From: Candidatus Bathyarchaeota archaeon
Lineage (GTDB): Archaea > Thermoproteota > Bathyarchaeia > Bathyarchaeales > Bathycorpusculaceae
Assembly (NCBI GenBank): GCA_963768425.1
Contig: CAVYHV010000030.1
Span: forward strand, 32,001 to 96,000
DNA: 64,000 nucleotides
Direction of reading: 5' to 3'
In this document: positions 10,824 through 19,079 of the stretch, piece after piece
Layout: each line of letters opens with the position of its first letter
Position numbering within the stretch: the first letter of the stretch is position 1
The notes under the pieces: generated by a model
Seen by the model: only the letters and a program-made list of their open reading frames with translations
The model's database searches: none
Told to the model about the DNA's origin: nothing
Program-made: the position numbers and the translations under genes

Positions 10824-13133
10824 GTGAATTGGCGATTGAATCATCGGAGTTTTCGATCTAAGAAGTTACCCGGCGAGGCAGAGGATTCAAACTCTAATGG
10901 AATTTCTCCCCAACTCGGCAAAGGAAGACGGACTGTCAGCAGCCAGGGGCTGGAGAGAAGAGAATTCTTGAAACTGACAGCCTTAGCAGCAGGCGGTGGC
11001 TTAGCCGCAGTTTTTTTATCTGGCGCCCTGAAGCCGTTGGGTTTTGTTTCGAAAGCAACAAATCAGCTTCTTGAAGCCCCAGGACAAGTAACTCCGAGAA
11101 TAGGGCTGATGGTGCCCGTTGCAGATTCCGCTTTGACCGTTTTAGATCCTACAACAATTCCGAAGTTCGAAAATGAGCTGGTTGGCCCCCCTCCTGTTTT
11201 CCAGCCTAATGTCGTAACAAACCAAGGCAAAGTGATTCGACACGACTACACAGTGACAATGGCAAGCTTCACTCAACAAATTCTTCCTCCCTCCATGAAA
11301 TTAATGACCCCTGTTTGGGGTTACTCAGGTTTAGCCACGGACGCACTAACTGGTGCATCTTTAGGATCCGTTCAAAGCACTCCCGGACCGTCTTTTGAAG
11401 CCATAAGAGGCGTACCCATACAAGTTCAATGGCAAAACAACATTTCATCCCCCTATATGTTACCAGTTGACCCAACAATTCACTGGGCAAACCCAAACAA
11501 AAGTCCAATGTCCGCTCAGCCTTTCCCAGTATTTCCGCCAGGATATCCAAACGCGCAATCTCCTGTTCCCCTTGTCACTCATCTTCACGGCGGCGAAAAC
11601 CAATCTTACTCTGACGGAGGTCCAAACCAATGGTTTACTTCCGATGGAAGACATGGTCAAGCATACTATACGGCTGAAAAAGCTAGTTCGAACGTCGCAG
11701 TCTATTATTATCCTAATGCTCAGCAACCGACTACCTTGTGGTACCACGATCATGCCTTAGGCGTCACTCGACTAAACGTGTTGTCAGGTCTAGCAGGTTT
11801 CTATTTGATCCGCGAATCCATTGGAAATGACAAAGTCGCGGCTGTACTGCCGAATGGAAAATACGAGATGCCGCTTGTGATTCAGGATAGAACATTCAAC
11901 AGCGACGGTTCCTTAAGTTATCCATCCGTCAGCTTTGTTCCTGACATCCATCCTTTCTGGGTTAACAGTTTCCTAGGCAATGCAATAATGGTAAATGGCA
12001 AGGTCTGGCCTAACATGAATGTTGACAGAGGACAATATAGGCTCAGAATCCTAAACGGATCAAACACGCGATTTTACGCTCTCAACTTTTCAAACGCGAT
12101 GACCTTCATCCAGATAGGAAGCGACGGCGGATACCTGAAAGCCCCAGTCGCCCTCACTTCCTTGACCTTAGCTCCTGCTGAACGTGCAGATATAATAGTT
12201 GACTTTTCAAATCTTGCACCCGGAGAAAGAGTCACACTGCAAAACTCTGCGTTGCTCTCGACCTTTGGTATCGAAGCACAAACCGTTGGACAAATAATGC
12301 AGTTCACAGCCAACAACACGCAAGGAATTGTTCCATTTAATATTGCTTCAGCGCCAAAACCATTTAATCCAACTCTTGCAGAATCGAACTTTCCAACCCT
12401 GCCAAAACCCACAAAGCAGCGAGTTCTGACACTTTACGAGATTGCTGATTCAAACGGCTTAATGGTTGAAGCTTTGCTTAACGGGCAAACCTGGGATGCG
12501 CCCACTTCGGAAACGCCTGAGCTAGGTGCAACTGAGGATTGGGTGATTGTTAACCCAACTATGGACGTTCACCCGATTCACCTCCACTTGGTGCAGTTTC
12601 AACTTGTCCAGCGTCAATTGTTAAACGCTCCCGGTTCATACGTAGACGAATGGTTAAGTATCAATGGGCAGCCGCCGTTCAGTCACGCAACAAAAAACGT
12701 TCAATCGCTTTCATCCTTCATGTTTACTAATGTAACTCAACCACAACCGCAAGAGCAATGTTGGAAAGACACGATTACTGTAAACTCCGGAGAAGTTGTA
12801 ACAATCCGAGTAAGATTCGCGCAGCAAGACGGCTCAGGTTTTCCGTTTGACGCAACGGCTGGGCCAGGATATGTTTGGCATTGCCATCTCCTTGAGCATG
12901 AAGATAACGAAATGATGCGTCCTTACAAAGTGACATCGCCAGCTTCAATCGCAGTTCCAATAGCGGTTTCCTCAGCAGTCGTGGGTGCAGCCGTTCTGTC
13001 TGCAGCGTACTACTATCAAAGAAGGCGAAAGAAGAAAGTTGCGAGCGTGGAAACCAACCCTCAATCGTCTCGGTTGTTGGGTAGCCAAGAAATGTCTCAA
13101 CAAGAAGAAGTATCACATGAAAAAGATGATTAA
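10824..13133 (+). CDS. Tat-exported multicopper oxidase (CotA/bilirubin oxidase-like) with C-terminal membrane anchor
   Basis: Twin-arginine ERREFLK; copper motifs THLHG, WYHDH, HPIHLHL, HCHLLEHEDNEMM; C-terminal TM plus RRRKKK; start uncertain. Confidence 0.9.
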   Translation: MNWRLNHRSFRSKKLPGEAEDSNSNGISPQLGKGRRTVSSQGLERREFLKLTALAAGGGLAAVFLSGALKPLGFVSKATNQLLEAPGQVTPRIGLMVPVADSALTVLDPTTIPKFENELVGPPPVFQPNVVTNQGKVIRHDYTVTMASFTQQILPPSMKLMTPVWGYSGLATDALTGASLGSVQSTPGPSFEAIRGVPIQVQWQNNISSPYMLPVDPTIHWANPNKSPMSAQPFPVFPPGYPNAQSPVPLVTHLHGGENQSYSDGGPNQWFTSDGRHGQAYYTAEKASSNVAVYYYPNAQQPTTLWYHDHALGVTRLNVLSGLAGFYLIRESIGNDKVAAVLPNGKYEMPLVIQDRTFNSDGSLSYPSVSFVPDIHPFWVNSFLGNAIMVNGKVWPNMNVDRGQYRLRILNGSNTRFYALNFSNAMTFIQIGSDGGYLKAPVALTSLTLAPAERADIIVDFSNLAPGERVTLQNSALLSTFGIEAQTVGQIMQFTANNTQGIVPFNIASAPKPFNPTLAESNFPTLPKPTKQRVLTLYEIADSNGLMVEALLNGQTWDAPTSETPELGATEDWVIVNPTMDVHPIHLHLVQFQLVQRQLLNAPGSYVDEWLSINGQPPFSHATKNVQSLSSFMFTNVTQPQPQEQCWKDTITVNSGEVVTIRVRFAQQDGSGFPFDATAGPGYVWHCHLLEHEDNEMMRPYKVTSPASIAVPIAVSSAVVGAAVLSAAYYYQRRRKKKVASVETNPQSSRLLGSQEMSQQEEVSHEKDD

Positions 13134-13252: not shown

Positions 13253-13744
13253 ATGTCACAGGAATATCGTCATATACTTCGTATTATGGGTACAGACGTT
13301 CCAGGTACCCTTAAGACTTCTTACGCTATCGCACAAATAAAGGGCGTTAGCTCAAGCCTTTCAAACGCGATTTTGAAGAAGGCAGAAGTGAATCCTGACC
13401 TGCGAGTAGGCTTCCTAACAGAGTCAGACATATCAAAGATTGAAAACGTTATTCGGGAGCCTGCAAAGTACAGTCTTCCAACTTGGCTTTTTAACAGACG
13501 AAAAGACTCTGACACAGGAAAAGACATGCATCTTCTCAGCGCCGACTTAGTTCTGAGGACGAAGCAGGATATTGACGATGCCAAAAACATCAGATCTTGG
13601 CGTGGATACCGCCATGCATACAGCCTCAAAGTCCGTGGTCAACACACTAAAACCACAGGACGAGCAGGCAAAGCTTTAGGCGTCAAGAAGAAAACTCTCT
13701 TGCAGAAACCTGGGGGAGCAGCACCTGCCGAAGGAGGCAAATAA
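13253..13744 (+). CDS. rps13: 30S ribosomal protein S13
   Basis: WLFNRRKD, SWRGYRH, LKVRGQHTKTTGR. Confidence 0.97.
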   Translation: MSQEYRHILRIMGTDVPGTLKTSYAIAQIKGVSSSLSNAILKKAEVNPDLRVGFLTESDISKIENVIREPAKYSLPTWLFNRRKDSDTGKDMHLLSADLVLRTKQDIDDAKNIRSWRGYRHAYSLKVRGQHTKTTGRAGKALGVKKKTLLQKPGGAAPAEGGK

Positions 13745-13746
13745 TC

Positions 13747-14337
13747 ATGGGTGATCCAAAGAAGCAACGTAAAAAGTTCGATACGCCACGGTTCCGCTGG
13801 CGCAAGGACATCCTTCAAGAAGAACTCAAACTTCTGGGTCAATATGGCTTGCGCAACAAGCATGAACTTTGGCGACACAAGACGACCCTGTCTAAGACTC
13901 GAGGCATCGCCCGTTCACTTATCAGCAAAACTCCTGAAGAACGAGCAAAGATGGAGAATGAGTTGCTGACAAAACTCAAGAAAGTCGGCATTCTGCAGGA
14001 AACTGCGGTTTTGGACAACGTCTTAGACTTAGGCATAGAAGATATTTTGGAGCGTAGGCTTCAAACAATTGTTTTTCGCAAGGGTTTAGCGAGGACCGTT
14101 TTCCAGTCACGTCAACTTATCACTCACGGACACGTAACCATTGACAACCGACGAATCACAGTTCCAGGGTACATGGTCGCGAAGTTGGACGAACCCAAAG
14201 TTATCTATTCACCTGAAAGCGCTGTTGCAAACCAAGCCCACCCATTGCGTGCTGGTCTGTCAGTTGTGGCTAAGCAGCCTGAAATTAGGCAGCCTGCCAG
14301 AGGCAGACGAGGCGGAAGAGGAGGCGGCAGGTTCTGA
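13747..14337 (+). CDS. rps4: 30S ribosomal protein S4 (with RGG-rich tail)
   Basis: [36 protein letters not shown]. Confidence 0.97.
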
Positions 14338-14738
14338 GCGCCAACAGCAAAAGAAACGAGAAATGGGCAATCGTCCACATTTTCAGCTCATATAACAACA
14401 CGTTGATACACATTACTGACATTTCAGGTGCGGAGACAATCGCTCGAACCAGCGGTGGTATGTTCGTTAAAGCAGACCGCATGGAGTCGTCTCCGTACGC
14501 TGCGATGCGTGCAGCAACTGGCGCAGCTGAAGTAGCTAGAGACAAGGGGATAACAGCCATTCACATTAAAGTTAGAGCTCCAGGCGGCAGTGGCCCAAGA
14601 ACTCCTGGTCCAGGTGCCCAAGCAGCTATCCGTGCATTGGCTAGGTTTGGGTTCAGAATTGAACGGATCGAGGAAGTTACACCTATTCCCCATGATGGGA
14701 CAAGAAGGCCTGGCGGCAGAAGAGGAAGAAGAGTCTAA
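14334..14738 (+). CDS. rps11: 30S ribosomal protein S11 (probable CTG start overlapping the rps4 stop)
   Basis: In-frame [21 protein letters not shown] upstream of the listed ORF; [28 protein letters not shown]. Confidence 0.95.
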
Positions 14739-14827
14739 ACTCAGTTTCCCCTCTTTATAAACAGAAAAATTGAAATAATGCACCATATCTCTATTGAACG
14801 CAAAAATGTTAAAGTAATCTTACTGGA

Positions 14828-15655
14828 GTGTCTCAGCAAGTGAAAATGGAAATCCTTGAAAAAAACGATAGCAACCTCCGCGTGGTTATCAGGGACGCGG
14901 ATGTTCCGTTAATGAACGCTCTGCGTCGCATAGCGCTTGCTGAGGTGCCGACCATGGCAATTGAAGAAGTTGTCATGATTGAAAACAGCTCTATCCTGCA
15001 GGATGAAATTATAGCTCACAGACTTGGTCTTACCCCACTGAAAACTGATTTGGATGCCTATAACCTGCCTGAAGAATGCGAGTGTCAAAGCGAATTTGGG
15101 TGTTCCCAATGTCGCGTAACATTAACACTTGACGCTGAAGCAAAGGAAGGTACGAGGACGGTTTATTCGGGTGAAATCGTGTCTGAAAACCCAGAGATTA
15201 TCCCTGTGTCGGATAAGATCCCGATTATCAAGCTTGCTAAGAACCAGAAACTTAAGCTTGAAGCCTATGCCCGTTTGGGAAGAGGCAAAGTTCACGCTAA
15301 GTGGCAGCCAGTTTCAATGTGCGCTTACAAGTATTACCCAAAAGTAACTGTTCCAATAGAGAAATGCGAGGAATGCGCAAAATGCGTCGAGATATGTCCC
15401 AAAAAGGTCCTCGAAATTAAAGATGACAAAGTCGATGTGCGAGACCTTTTGGCATGCAATCTCTGCATGGATTGCGTTGAAGCTTGCCCGAAAAAGCCTT
15501 CGCCGCTCAAGGTAGAGTGGGAGAAGGAAGCTTTCGTAATGAACATCGAGTCTACAGGCGCGCTTCCTCCAGGACGCATACTCCAAGAAGCTTCCAAAAC
15601 GTTAGGTAAACAACTTAATGAAATTGAAGAATTGTTAAAGGCTGAATCGCAATGA
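14828..15655 (+). CDS. rpoD: DNA-directed RNA polymerase subunit D (Rpo3) with ferredoxin-like Fe-S domain
   Basis: NALRR..LAEVPTMAI, DEIIAHRLGL, HAKWQP, two CxxCxxCxxxCP motifs. Confidence 0.96.
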   Translation: MSQQVKMEILEKNDSNLRVVIRDADVPLMNALRRIALAEVPTMAIEEVVMIENSSILQDEIIAHRLGLTPLKTDLDAYNLPEECECQSEFGCSQCRVTLTLDAEAKEGTRTVYSGEIVSENPEIIPVSDKIPIIKLAKNQKLKLEAYARLGRGKVHAKWQPVSMCAYKYYPKVTVPIEKCEECAKCVEICPKKVLEIKDDKVDVRDLLACNLCMDCVEACPKKPSPLKVEWEKEAFVMNIESTGALPPGRILQEASKTLGKQLNEIEELLKAESQ

Positions 15656-16014
15656 AAGAGTCAAAATCAACAAATCCCGAATTAATCCATCTTATTGGTT
15701 TACTCAAGAAAGAAAGCAAAGAAAAACAAGCAGGCATCTGGCTTGACCTAGCAGAATACCTTTCTAAAACACGGAGTCAACGGATTAGTGTTAATTTGAG
15801 TACTTTAAACAGGAACACAAAACGCGCTGAGACAGTGGTTGTTCCTGGCAAAATCTTGGGTTCAGGCTGCTTAAACCACGCTTTAACCGTGGCTTCGTTT
15901 GGTGCTTCTGAGAAAGCCAAGTCCAAGGTTGTTGCTGCAAAAGGGAAATACATTTCGATTCCTGAGCTTATGGAGAAGAATCCTAAGGGCTCAAACGTCA
16001 GAATTATCCGGTGA
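15652..16014 (+). CDS. rpl18e: 50S ribosomal protein L18e
   Basis: STNPEL, VNLS, VVVPGKILGSG, NPKGSNVRII. Confidence 0.95.
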   Translation: MKESKSTNPELIHLIGLLKKESKEKQAGIWLDLAEYLSKTRSQRISVNLSTLNRNTKRAETVVVPGKILGSGCLNHALTVASFGASEKAKSKVVAAKGKYISIPELMEKNPKGSNVRIIR

Positions 16015-16463
16015 AAAACATGCAAACCACGAAAACTCCAGTTGTCCTTGTTAACGCTGAAGGATTGATAGTTGGCAGATTAGGTAGCAAAGTCGCTAAG
16101 TTACTCCTCAATGGGGAAGAAGTAATAATCCTTAACGCTGAAAAAGCCGTGTTCTCTGGAAAAAAGAAAAGCAAAGTTGCCGAAGCCAAACAGTTTCTTG
16201 AGGTAGGTGCACCTGAACGCGGTCCTTTTCATTATCGTAGGCCCGATAAGTACCTGCGCAAGACCCTGCGAGGAATGCTTCCCTACAAGCAGCCTAAAGG
16301 CAAAACCGCGTATAAACGCCTCAAAGTCTTCATGGGTGTACCTATGGAGCTTAAAGGAAAAGAAATGATCACGTTCACAGAAGCCTCATCTGCCACTTTA
16401 AAAGGGCCACATTTCACCCTTATGGAGTTGGCGAAAGAGATAGGCTGGAGCAAAGGTGAATAG
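16011..16463 (+). CDS. rpl13: 50S ribosomal protein L13
   Basis: GRLGSKVAK, NAEKAVFSG, GPFHYRRP, RGMLPYK. Confidence 0.95.
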   Translation: MKNMQTTKTPVVLVNAEGLIVGRLGSKVAKLLLNGEEVIILNAEKAVFSGKKKSKVAEAKQFLEVGAPERGPFHYRRPDKYLRKTLRGMLPYKQPKGKTAYKRLKVFMGVPMELKGKEMITFTEASSATLKGPHFTLMELAKEIGWSKGE

Positions 16464-16465
16464 TT

Positions 16466-16876
16466 ATGCCCGCAAAGAAAGTTTTAGTTGTCAGTGGAAA
16501 AAGAAAAACCGCAGTCGCCCGAGCCGTAGTCAAGCAAGGAATTGGGAAAGTTCGGATAAACAGAACACCAGTTGAAATTTACGAACCCGACGTTGCAAAA
16601 GCAAAAATTATGGAGCCCCTTCTGCAGGCAGGCCCCGAAATCTGGGAACAACTAGACATGGATATCCAAACCAGCGGTGGAGGCTACATGGGACAGGCAG
16701 AAGCCGCCCGAGTTGCAGTTGCAAACGCGCTGTTAAAGTGGACAAAGAGCACTCATCTGCGTACCGTGTTCAGCGAATACGACCGAACCATGATTGTTGG
16801 TGACAGCCGAGCTAAAGAAACCAAAAAGTTCGGTGGAGCGGGCGCACGTTCTAAGGAACAGAAGAGTTACAGGTAA
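16466..16876 (+). CDS. rps9: 30S ribosomal protein S9
   Basis: SGKRKTAVARA, GGGYMGQAEA, KKFGGAGARSKEQKSYR. Confidence 0.97.
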   Translation: MPAKKVLVVSGKRKTAVARAVVKQGIGKVRINRTPVEIYEPDVAKAKIMEPLLQAGPEIWEQLDMDIQTSGGGYMGQAEAARVAVANALLKWTKSTHLRTVFSEYDRTMIVGDSRAKETKKFGGAGARSKEQKSYR

Positions 16877-18155: not shown

Positions 18156-18487
18156 ATAATGGGGGGAGCGTTTTTAAAGCTTACATAAAATTGCTGCCGC
18201 CATGAAACGTTCACCAATTTGCAATATCGGGGTGCCGGGGGTTTGGAAACATGACGGTGCAGGTACCGTTGTTTTTTGTGGTTTTGCAAAGAAATTGCGT
18301 TCTTCATGTCAAATTGCGTAGTTCATGTGAAAAGACAATTAGTTCACCGTTAAGAATGGTTAAAGCGCCTTTCGAAGGCTCAGGAGATTTAGATAAAAAA
18401 GTACGTTTTTACACGCTCACGCAAAGAGCTTATTGCCATAAGAAAGTTAAAAACATGTTTTATAGACCTTAGGCTTATTACAACCTT

Positions 18488-18714
18488 GCAGGTTGAGAAG
18501 CACGCTTTAAATGCAAACGCATTGAAGCAAAGAGTGCGTCAATAAAAACAGCGGAAAATTGACGGGCACCAAAGACTTTGCTTTAATGGGCTGGACGTAG
18601 CTATGTAGCAGGGAAGCTATGAGCGGCGTGGTCAAAACGGTGAAAGACCATGAAGCGACAAAGACATGGCTTCAATGGGCCGCGTAACATCTTTAAGGCT
18701 TAGACTCAACCTGC
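18488..18714 (+). ncRNA. Candidate structured non-coding RNA (~227 nt, multibranch), family not recognised
   Basis: Closing stem GCAGGTTGAG/CTCAACCTGC, several internal stems with G-U pairs only on the plus strand, TATA-like TTTTATA about 25 nt upstream, T-rich tract downstream, no credible ORF. Confidence 0.7.
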
Positions 18715-18789
18715 TTAACTTTTATTCAAACAAAAATTTAATTTTCCATTACCCACTCTTTGGTTTCGCTTCCGGAACACCTGAAGCAG

Positions 18790-18999
18790 TCAGATTCTGT
18801 TGAAGTACTCTAAAGGCGCATACCAGAAAACTGTAATTGTCTTTTGACACTCGGGGTTTTTGCATTTAACCTTGATTTTCACGACATTTCCGTGGAAACT
18901 GCTTCGTATAGGTTTTACTTCTGAAAACGCTGTGTGAAATTTATCTGGCGGTTCAATTTCAAAGGGTTTGTAACAAAAGGGGCATTCAAGAACAGCCAT
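18790..18999 (-). CDS. Small zinc-finger protein
   Basis: CPFC and CKNPEC; upstream GGTGA Shine-Dalgarno. Confidence 0.65.
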   Translation of the reverse strand: MAVLECPFCYKPFEIEPPDKFHTAFSEVKPIRSSFHGNVVKIKVKCKNPECQKTITVFWYAPLEYFNRI

Positions 19000-19079
19000 A
19001 ATTCACCCTCAACCTAATAATACGCAGAAGAATGCTAAAAACTTGGCGCTATCGCAAAGAGTTGCTTTTTATTTATCGT

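Follow-up and report, generated by a model that had tools for sequence, protein, structure and literature searches.

A stand-alone archaeal gene that probably yields a circular RNA of pseudoknotted modules in Bathyarchaeia

The window analysed here is a 64,000-nucleotide (nt) stretch of contig CAVYHV010000030.1 (positions 32,001 to 96,000 of the forward strand; assembly GCA_963768425.1) from a Candidatus Bathyarchaeota archaeon, and positions are counted from its first nucleotide. Plus-strand positions 18488-18714 are probably an archaeal gene that stands alone and is served by a TATA promoter of its own; the two ends of its transcript would form a bulge-helix-bulge (BHB) and be processed to give a circle. 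A fold with covariation, the BHB geometry, joined sequence in RNA libraries and the genes for the enzymes were observed; the cutting and joining would be done by EndA and RtcB. A sequence-only reading of the same DNA had proposed an independently transcribed, structured non-coding RNA of ~227 nt, linear, with ends at ~18488 and ~18720. Its proposal of a non-coding RNA gene with its own promoter agrees with the spacing of the TATA-like box, which is kept in paralogues and relatives; the linear ~227-nt form is not supported, as contigs from RNA libraries join 18703 to 18504.

Joined sequence in RNA libraries

Six RNA runs were listed as containing part of the stretch. Four of these, from three studies, were examined, and contigs were aligned at 90% likeness. 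All four runs contained a contig in which 18703 was joined directly to 18504, going back by 200 nt, without intervening letters and at an unambiguous position. In these contigs the shorter side measured 26, 20, 33 and 48 nt, and one 192-nt contig carried 48 nt before the joint and 144 nt after it with at most one mismatch. The same joint was seen at the loose ends of contigs, in sequence variants matching paralogues or relatives. The joint lies symmetrically, two bases into each bulge of the BHB described below, and EndA canonically cuts after the second base of each bulge. At contig level, this matches cleavage inside both bulges and ligation of the excised piece. Word depths on the contigs matching the RNA were very high in the four libraries. 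No contig covered sequence outside 18504-18703 (P1 and flanks) in the four runs, an absence that was not counted as evidence.

The junction 14-mer was absent from the DNA of the archaeon's own genome. Among 120 genomes of the genus, 27 contained it, at 31 sites in total; the reversed control gave 5. Twenty of the 31 sites were inspected with the module-level covariance model R2 (E up to 1) and had no module within 400 nt; their flanks were unrelated, partly orthologous coding sequence. Because the junction is present in RNA and absent from the DNA of this genome, which also encodes EndA and RtcB, the mature product is most likely a 200-nt circle and not a 227-nt linear RNA.

A single contig from run X17 carried a second joint, from 18650 back to 18608, at a depth of 5.8. 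It probably derives from a relative with a different module order, or it may be an assembly join between two similar modules.

Transcript ends as a bulge-helix-bulge

The perfect 10-bp closing stem and its extensions AAGC/GCTT and GCTTTAA/TTAAGGC, the last noted earlier as TTTAAA/TTTAAG, were confirmed (Table 1). Read with two 3-nt bulges, they have the BHB layout, in which one bulge separates a 10-bp outer helix (P1) from a 4-bp helix and the other separates the latter from an inner helix (P2). The locus thus has two 3-nt bulges on opposite strands, a 4-bp helix between them and flanking helices, as in a BHB substrate. The ends were parsed in 98 of 110 unique sequences. All ten pairs of P1 showed compensatory or wobble changes among these 98. 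The central helix had standard pairs in 392 of 392 cells, its first pair being GC in 38 sequences, GU in 33 and AU in 27. The 5' bulge was A-N-G in 98/98 and the 3' bulge AGA in 91/98, and the P2 register was supported by U-A to C-G changes in other families. As the RNA contigs join 18703 to 18504, the closing stem is better read as a processing signal that is removed. The flanks are neither tRNA nor rRNA: ARAGORN found no tRNA at 18200-19000, and Rfam 15, searched over the whole window at gathering thresholds, gave two tRNAs elsewhere, no rRNA and no match at the locus.

Repeated pseudoknotted modules

The RNA is modular, with one to three modules of ~80 nt per gene. The window gene has two; some relatives have genes of ~136 nt with one, and the copy on contig C6 of the same genome and others have three. 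In total, 178 unique modules were extracted and 117 representatives were aligned at <90% identity. Each module consists of a lower stem Pa, an asymmetric internal loop, an upper stem Pb, an apical loop and a tail. The internal loop reads NNN-GA on its 5' side and G(A)-CAAAGAC on its 3' side, and the GA on both strands adjoins the upper stem in a manner resembling a kink-turn (K-turn). The apical loop has the consensus AAAC-R-G-Y-NN-AA-R, and the tail, G-G-G-C-Y-G, lies directly behind Pa. A pseudoknot arises where four bases of the loop pair with four of the tail behind the hairpin, and the spacing is rigid: the tail motif begins ~41 nt after the loop motif in nearly all sequences listed.

Over the 117 modules, 91.6% of cells were paired, versus 32-41% when the partners were slid by one to three columns. 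Change on both sides, that is compensatory change, was seen in 23 of 25 module pairs, and none of 500 shuffles attained any of five pairing measures. The pseudoknot helix was paired in 99.8% of cells; one of its pairs was AU in 56 modules, GC in 49 and GU in 12, with none unpaired, and another was CG in 89, UA in 18 and UG in 10. Several unpaired bases around it were invariant or near-invariant, namely AAA and AA of the loop (116-117 of 117) and A-A-G-A-C (101-116 of 117). Covariation among collected homologues, which had been suggested as a check, is thus present both in the modules and in P1.

Arm 1 of the sequence-only reading, CATTGAAGCAAA/TTTGCTTTAATG with inner GTGCGTCAAT/ATTGAC..GCAC, is the hairpin of the first module, and the likeness that had been noted between two A-rich loops held on rereading the sequence. 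The 3' half had been drawn as a three-way junction closed by GCGGC/GCCGC; the 117-module alignment and the pair counts instead place a second arm-1 module there. From that junction only the helix GTGGTC/GACCAT survived comparison, and the enclosure by GCGGC/GCCGC and GAAGC/GCTTC was replaced: GGAAGC pairs with GCTTC, GCGGC with the GAAGCG side, and GCCG (18679-18682) with loop CGGT (18638-18641). A short AGCT/AGCT stem is present in the window copy and is not kept in relatives. The pseudoknots and the BHB at the base of the stem had been overlooked.

With G-U pairs counted, the linker between the modules (18597-18608, ACGTAGCTATGT) is complementary to itself in several though not all copies, and could form a small hairpin or an intermolecular contact.

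Folding energy and strand

The plus strand had a minimum free energy of -79.1 kcal/mol (z -4.38), and none of 200 shuffles folded equally well, so that the element is structured beyond chance, as had been claimed; z was -3.91 for the minus strand. The consensus fold of 16 full-length homologues gave -63.0 kcal/mol on the plus strand versus -28.9 kcal/mol on the minus strand, and the pairs of the plus strand contained 136 G-U cells versus 15 A-C cells. On these energies and counts the RNA is read from the plus strand, in agreement with the earlier call. A minus-strand leader of the neighbouring DsbD-like gene was considered and ruled out by the same two measures. The plus strand of the circle contains no open reading frame (ORF) of more than 28 codons.

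Comparison with known RNA families

With the Rfam threshold relaxed to E up to 10, the best match at the locus scored 20.9 bits against a threshold of 43 (E 0.36). Nothing recurred among 20 diverse homologues, the pistol ribozyme model scoring 22.1 against 34.5 bits in one of the 20. The locus and these homologues all lie below the gathering thresholds of Rfam 15, riboswitch, C/D and H/ACA families included, as expected from the previous statement that no known family was recognised, and by these searches the RNA is a candidate family not in Rfam 15. The reported absence of RNase P, signal recognition particle (SRP) and tRNA signatures likewise held. A divergent SRP RNA or RNase P RNA was rejected, both being found above cut-offs on other contigs of the genome. 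Neither TGATGA nor CTGA, the boxes of C/D box small RNAs (sRNAs), occurs in the circle of the window copy; where CUGA stands in loops of other copies, it belongs to the pseudoknot region. No tnpB, iscB or recombinase gene, as would accompany an omega-RNA or transposon guide, recurred among the flanks of 65 loci. A full-text literature search, the coverage of which excluded subscription journals and supplementary files, found no paper describing such an RNA.

Proposed biogenesis and function

Two genes of the EndA family were found in the genome (PF01974, 97.9 and 79.3 bits; open frames of 199 and 198 amino acids (aa); regions C10:129004-129243 and C28:27171-27425), a pair that would fit a heteromeric enzyme. 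RtcB was matched by PF01139 at 413 bits in two overlapping frames. At this RtcB locus (G000:C8:125066-126375, minus strand) the frames match model positions 1-303 and 299-426, a layout that may come from a frameshift, from misassembly or from a gene in two parts. For rRNA of Bathyarchaeia, circularisation through a BHB has been published (PMC12918454).

In the proposed pathway, the ends of the primary transcript would fold into the BHB, EndA would cut after the second base of each bulge (18503|18504 and 18703|18704), and RtcB would ligate the ends of the excised piece into a covalently closed non-coding RNA of 200 nt, the leftover short hairpin, ~27 nt (16 + 11 nt) if transcription starts at P1, being discarded. 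P2 would then be a hairpin capped by UUAG across the junction. Within each module the 4-bp loop-tail pseudoknot would lock the kinked hairpin, with the invariant A-rich strands displayed around it. By gene length, circles would be ~106 nt with one module and ~290 nt with three.

Such a circle, acting in trans, might offer a nuclease-resistant, multivalent platform to a protein or small ligand recognising the module, or be a decoy for it. This suggestion is tentative; it was prompted by purines that are unpaired yet invariant, by the rigid geometry, by identical modules that vary in number, by the circularity and by the high contig depths. Also doubtful is the idea that the module is a new fold with an activity of its own, as a metabolite or ion aptamer or as a ribozyme, made by the tRNA-splicing machinery as an exonuclease-proof circle in one to three copies; the gene would then represent a dedicated class of circular RNA genes, and few non-ribosomal RNAs of these uncultured archaea of peat and sediments would be more abundant than its product.

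Alternative explanations

Several points weigh against the processing proposed here. The RNA evidence consists of assembled contigs, not raw reads; likeness was set at 90%, and in two of the four contigs with the junction the shorter side is <30 nt. Such joints can arise from other organisms or from repeats; the caution applies to joints with <95% likeness or sides of <30 nt, and the runs aligned were all RNA runs. The contigs come without read-level 5' and 3' ends or strand, and they fit a circle and a head-to-tail multimer alike; the joined form is taken to be a monomer circle. The covarying P2 register leaves a 4-nt and not a 3-nt 5' bulge; it pairs at 5/5 positions in 64 of the 98 sequences, versus 2 of the 98 for the canonical register, which in general pairs only 3-4 of the five inner-helix positions. 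As the stable register gives a 4-nt bulge, the BHB is canonical only with three alternative pairs. A K-turn, the kink bound by L7Ae, has a 3-nt bulge and then tandem sheared G.A/A.G pairs adjoining a helix. In the modules, the 5' strand NNN-G-A had G in 96 and A in 104 of 117; the 3' strand had G in 109, the next A in only 84, and an inserted 7-nt strand. That A should be invariant in a K-turn, and its absence from the other modules weakens this reading. EndA and RtcB are candidate enzymes by gene presence and motif, and the function proposed above is a guess.

Part of this would suit a linear, structured RNA of ~227 nt, in which the closing stem belongs to the mature molecule and the junction contigs are assembly artefacts. 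The full hairpin-closed fold is very stable, covariation in P1 is equally expected of a structural stem, and the joining evidence is at contig level. We nevertheless consider a linear product unlikely: the joint falls outside the repeated modules, at a point exactly two bases inside each of two conserved 3-nt bulges around a 4-bp helix, all four runs (three studies) contained it, sequence variants showed it too, and the joined 14-mer is missing from the DNA of the genome. A selfish, intron-like or mobile element, that is a BHB-bounded cassette that spreads and produces an RNA without cellular function, would account for one to four copies per genome in changing contexts, for the patchy occurrence across families (f6, 2/25; f7, 19/35), for the three-module copy in a Methanomicrobiales genome and for a copy on one IMG/VR contig. 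It is improbable, however, given that the copies have their own promoter, that no transposase, integrase or target-site duplication was seen in flanks of ±1.5 kb (duplications were not specifically searched), that almost all high-quality genomes of the genus carry the gene (64 of 73) and that microsynteny is conserved in several orders. In addition, paralogues of 76-81% identity keep every helix by compensation and keep the invariant loop bases, a sign that the RNA itself is under selection.

We give least credence to, and regard as highly improbable, a role as cis-acting leader or riboswitch for an adjacent gene, or as a DNA repeat of the miniature inverted-repeat transposable element (MITE) type. 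The style of the RNA recalls an aptamer (kinked hairpin, loop-tail pseudoknot, tandem copies). The downstream gene is convergent and the upstream gene divergent, though, the neighbours vary between copies and the G-U versus A-C counts fix the plus strand. As to a MITE, which had been named as a possible refutation, the three copies in the genome have diverged to 76-81% identity and differ by compensatory changes; apart from the covarying stem, terminal inverted repeats were not seen. The stems covary and similarity between loci is confined to promoter and RNA; no search was aimed at target-site duplications. The preferred explanation is that of a gene with its own promoter and a circularised product.

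Relation to known circular RNAs

To our knowledge, the known archaeal circles made through a BHB are by-products or intermediates (tRNA introns, pre-rRNAs) or the repaired product of a permuted gene (Thermoproteus SRP RNA). The present gene is conserved, has its own promoter and seemingly exists only to make a circle, the content of which is a strongly constrained modular pseudoknot fold with invariant unpaired bases. Circles from tRNA introns, including the C/D box intron of tRNA-Trp, and from pre-16S and pre-23S rRNA share with it a BHB at the base of a long stem, cuts in the bulges and an excised circle (background in PMC12558985 and PMC12918454). In the window RNA, by contrast, there is no host tRNA or rRNA, the 'exons' amount to a 10-bp hairpin only, and the circle, with its new modular pseudoknot fold, is the only evident gene product.

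Circularisation of the Thermoproteus SRP RNA reportedly proceeds via a BHB. It is a functional non-coding RNA of a Thermoproteota archaeon and resembles the RNA described here in being circularised; it is, however, a universal RNA with a permuted gene, whereas the window gene is unpermuted, its family is not a known one and a normal SRP RNA is encoded elsewhere. The permuted SRP RNA is reported to work only after circularisation (PMC4731332).

Circular C/D box RNAs are not known to depend on a BHB. The window circle differs from C/D and omega circles in having neither a TGATGA/CTGA box nor an adjoining tnpB. It shares with both that they are small, stable, circular non-coding RNAs of archaea, as treated in PMC12558985, where omega-RNA circles are described as lacking a BHB.

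In riboswitch-type aptamers, kinking of a helix can bring a hairpin loop into pairing with a strand farther downstream. These resemble the modules in the asymmetric internal loop, the loop-tail pseudoknot, the invariant unpaired purines and the tandem copies; the window RNA differs in not lying in a 5' leader, in being circular and in matching no Rfam aptamer. The gene is widespread in Bathyarchaeia, a group that ranks among the uncultured archaea of greatest abundance in peat and sediments. The gene offers a testable new class of EndA/RtcB substrate, a candidate for structure determination and a natural design for stable circular RNA scaffolds.

Gene structure and upstream region

The coordinates are collected in Table 1. 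Both the TATA-like box upstream of the stem and the T-tract after it (TTTT at 18720-18723) had been predicted and were found. Two upstream subtypes were recognised, both with an A/T box ~27 nt before P1, and T-rich runs lie 3' of the stem in most gene copies. The subtype that includes the window gene has a common block of ~200 nt containing the 19-nt repeats, which lie ~160-195 nt upstream; the other has a common block of ~80 nt in which a palindrome adjoins the A/T box. The 19-nt repeats are kept upstream of non-syntenic copies in several genomes, and within the archaeon's own genome the motif has hardly any matches beyond the RNA loci on contigs C30 (the window) and C6. The tandem repeats may be a binding site for a regulator. 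A regulon built on the repeat was discarded, with 43+45 loose matches versus 41+23 for the reversed control.

Table 1. Features of the RNA gene and its upstream region in the window.
Feature	Position	Strand	Basis or remark
Two tandem 19-nt direct repeats, AAATTGCGTTCTTCATGTC and AAATTGCGTAGTTCATGTG	18292..18329	+	11 aligned upstream regions from non-syntenic loci
TATA-like box, TTTTATAG	18458-18465	+	23 nt 5' of stem; centre ~27 nt before first base of P1
P1, 5' strand, GCAGGTTGAG (outer helix, h, of BHB)	18488-18497	+	pairs with 18705-18714; predicted to be removed from mature RNA
Central 4-bp helix, 5' strand, AAGC	18498-18501	+	pairs with GCTT 18698-18701
5' bulge, A-C-G	18502-18504	+	putative cut 18503/18504; RNA contig junction begins at 18504
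P2, 5' strand, GCTTTAA	18504-18510	+	pairs with TTAAGGC 18693-18699; RNAalifold pairs 19-25/214-220
Putative mature circular RNA, 200 nt	18504..18703	+	RNA contigs joining 18703 to 18504
Module 1	18520..18593	+	module alignment A6 and pair counts
Module 1, Pa	18520-18531 / 18577-18588	+	
Module 1, GAG	18532-18534	+	
Module 1, Pb	18534-18544 / 18557-18567	+	
Module 1, CAAAGAC strand	18570-18576	+	
Module 1, pseudoknot, loop CAGC / tail GCTG	18549-18552 / 18590-18593	+	
Module 2	18609..18682	+	module alignment A6 and pair counts; both modules score with R2
Module 2, Pa	18609-18617 / 18668-18677	+	
Module 2, GAG	18621-18623	+	
Module 2, Pb	18623-18633 / 18646-18656	+	
Module 2, CAAAGAC strand	18659-18665	+	
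Module 2, pseudoknot, loop CGGT / tail GCCG	18638-18641 / 18679-18682	+	
Central 4-bp helix, 3' strand, GCTT	18698-18701	+	pairs with AAGC 18498-18501
3' bulge, A-G-A	18702-18704	+	putative cut 18703/18704; RNA contig junction finishes at 18703
P1, 3' strand, CTCAACCTGC	18705-18714	+	pairs with GCAGGTTGAG 18488-18497
T-rich tract, TTTTATT, likely archaeal terminator	18720..18726	+	sequence reading

Copies and taxonomic distribution

The archaeon's own genome carries three copies: that of the window on C30, one at C9:203983-204212 (81% identity) and one at C6:317142-317457 (76-79%, with an extra arm). R2 found exactly seven modules in this genome, as 2+2+3. A covariance model of the full gene, R1, built from 16 sequences, detected it in 96 of 120 genomes of the genus with one to four matches each, including 64 of 73 genomes of high quality (>=90% complete, <=5% contaminated). 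In the order sample the gene was present in 74 of 151 genomes (R1), unevenly by family (33/34 in f11, 19/35 in f7, 2/25 in f6). No module was found by R2 in 136 genomes of the phylum outside the order, five of them from other Bathyarchaeia orders. A class sample gave R2 matches in 25 of 151 genomes, 12 of which, all single-module, were from other orders.

A pattern scan with one genome per species yielded at least 80 loci, and R1 confirmed 55 among the 80 listed. Among the matches listed, 53 of the 55 confirmed loci stood in records titled Bathyarchaeia, Bathyarchaeota or uncultured archaeon, one was on a contig of a metagenome-assembled genome (MAG) labelled Limnocylindrales, possibly mis-binned, and one was on the chromosome of a Methanomicrobiales MAG. 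Bacterial pattern matches were set aside: 25 among the 80 listed were unconfirmed by R1, and a rescan of these 25 with R2 gave one marginal match of 25 bits.

The Methanomicrobiales locus (L212:1400-1900, minus strand; G258:C1 ~748432-748714) has three tandem modules inside a closing stem, downstream of a TATA-like box. By eye the outer stem and the 4-bp helix are present, but the 3' bulge is of 10 nt and the BHB is not clean. This copy suggests transfer between phyla or a wider family. One of six pattern matches in IMG/VR was real, on a contig of 4,273 nt that begins with three modules (L232:1-271, minus strand).

Neighbouring genes

The window gene lies between a divergent upstream gene for a DsbD-like membrane protein and a convergent downstream gene for a GDSL hydrolase, and neighbours differ between gene copies within the genus. 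Another arrangement is seen in other families and also in three that belong to other orders: the RNA gene is flanked on one side by the 3' end of a gene for an ATP-dependent DNA ligase and on the other by a divergent gene for a protein of ~210 aa (L090:1645-2364 (+), L075:2117-2746 (+) and homologues). The protein belongs to no Pfam family. It had 3,501 homologues at E up to 0.001, nearly all from Bathyarchaeia and, where named, hypothetical proteins. Its structural model had a predicted local distance difference test (pLDDT) score of 91.3, and the best structural neighbours were of PD-(D/E)xK type, with modest scores (Z 9.0-9.3, Foldseek E 2e-3 or worse).

Among the 151 genomes of the order sample, relatives in which are not independent, 70 had both RNA and protein, 4 the RNA only, 19 the protein only and 58 neither. 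The class sample had the protein in 74 of 151 genomes versus the RNA in 25 of 151, and for family f51 the counts were 27/27 versus 1/27. No module was found upstream of the protein gene at 20 loci without a detected adjacent RNA gene, most of them in genomes without the RNA. As the protein is far more widespread than the RNA and no module was found at these loci, only synteny and no binding of RNA and protein is claimed. The copy of the protein gene in the archaeon's own genome (G000:C17:116932-117550) has an in-frame stop and lies in two frames; it may be broken or mis-assembled.

Elsewhere in the window, short ORFs of conserved appearance at 13253-16876 (plus strand) resemble by eye an archaeal cluster of ribosomal protein and RNA polymerase subunit genes (S13, S4, S11, RpoD, L18e, L13, S9). 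Upstream of these, a 769-aa ORF at 10824-13133 (plus strand) has histidine-rich motifs suggestive, by eye, of a multicopper oxidase, together with a signal or anchor region.

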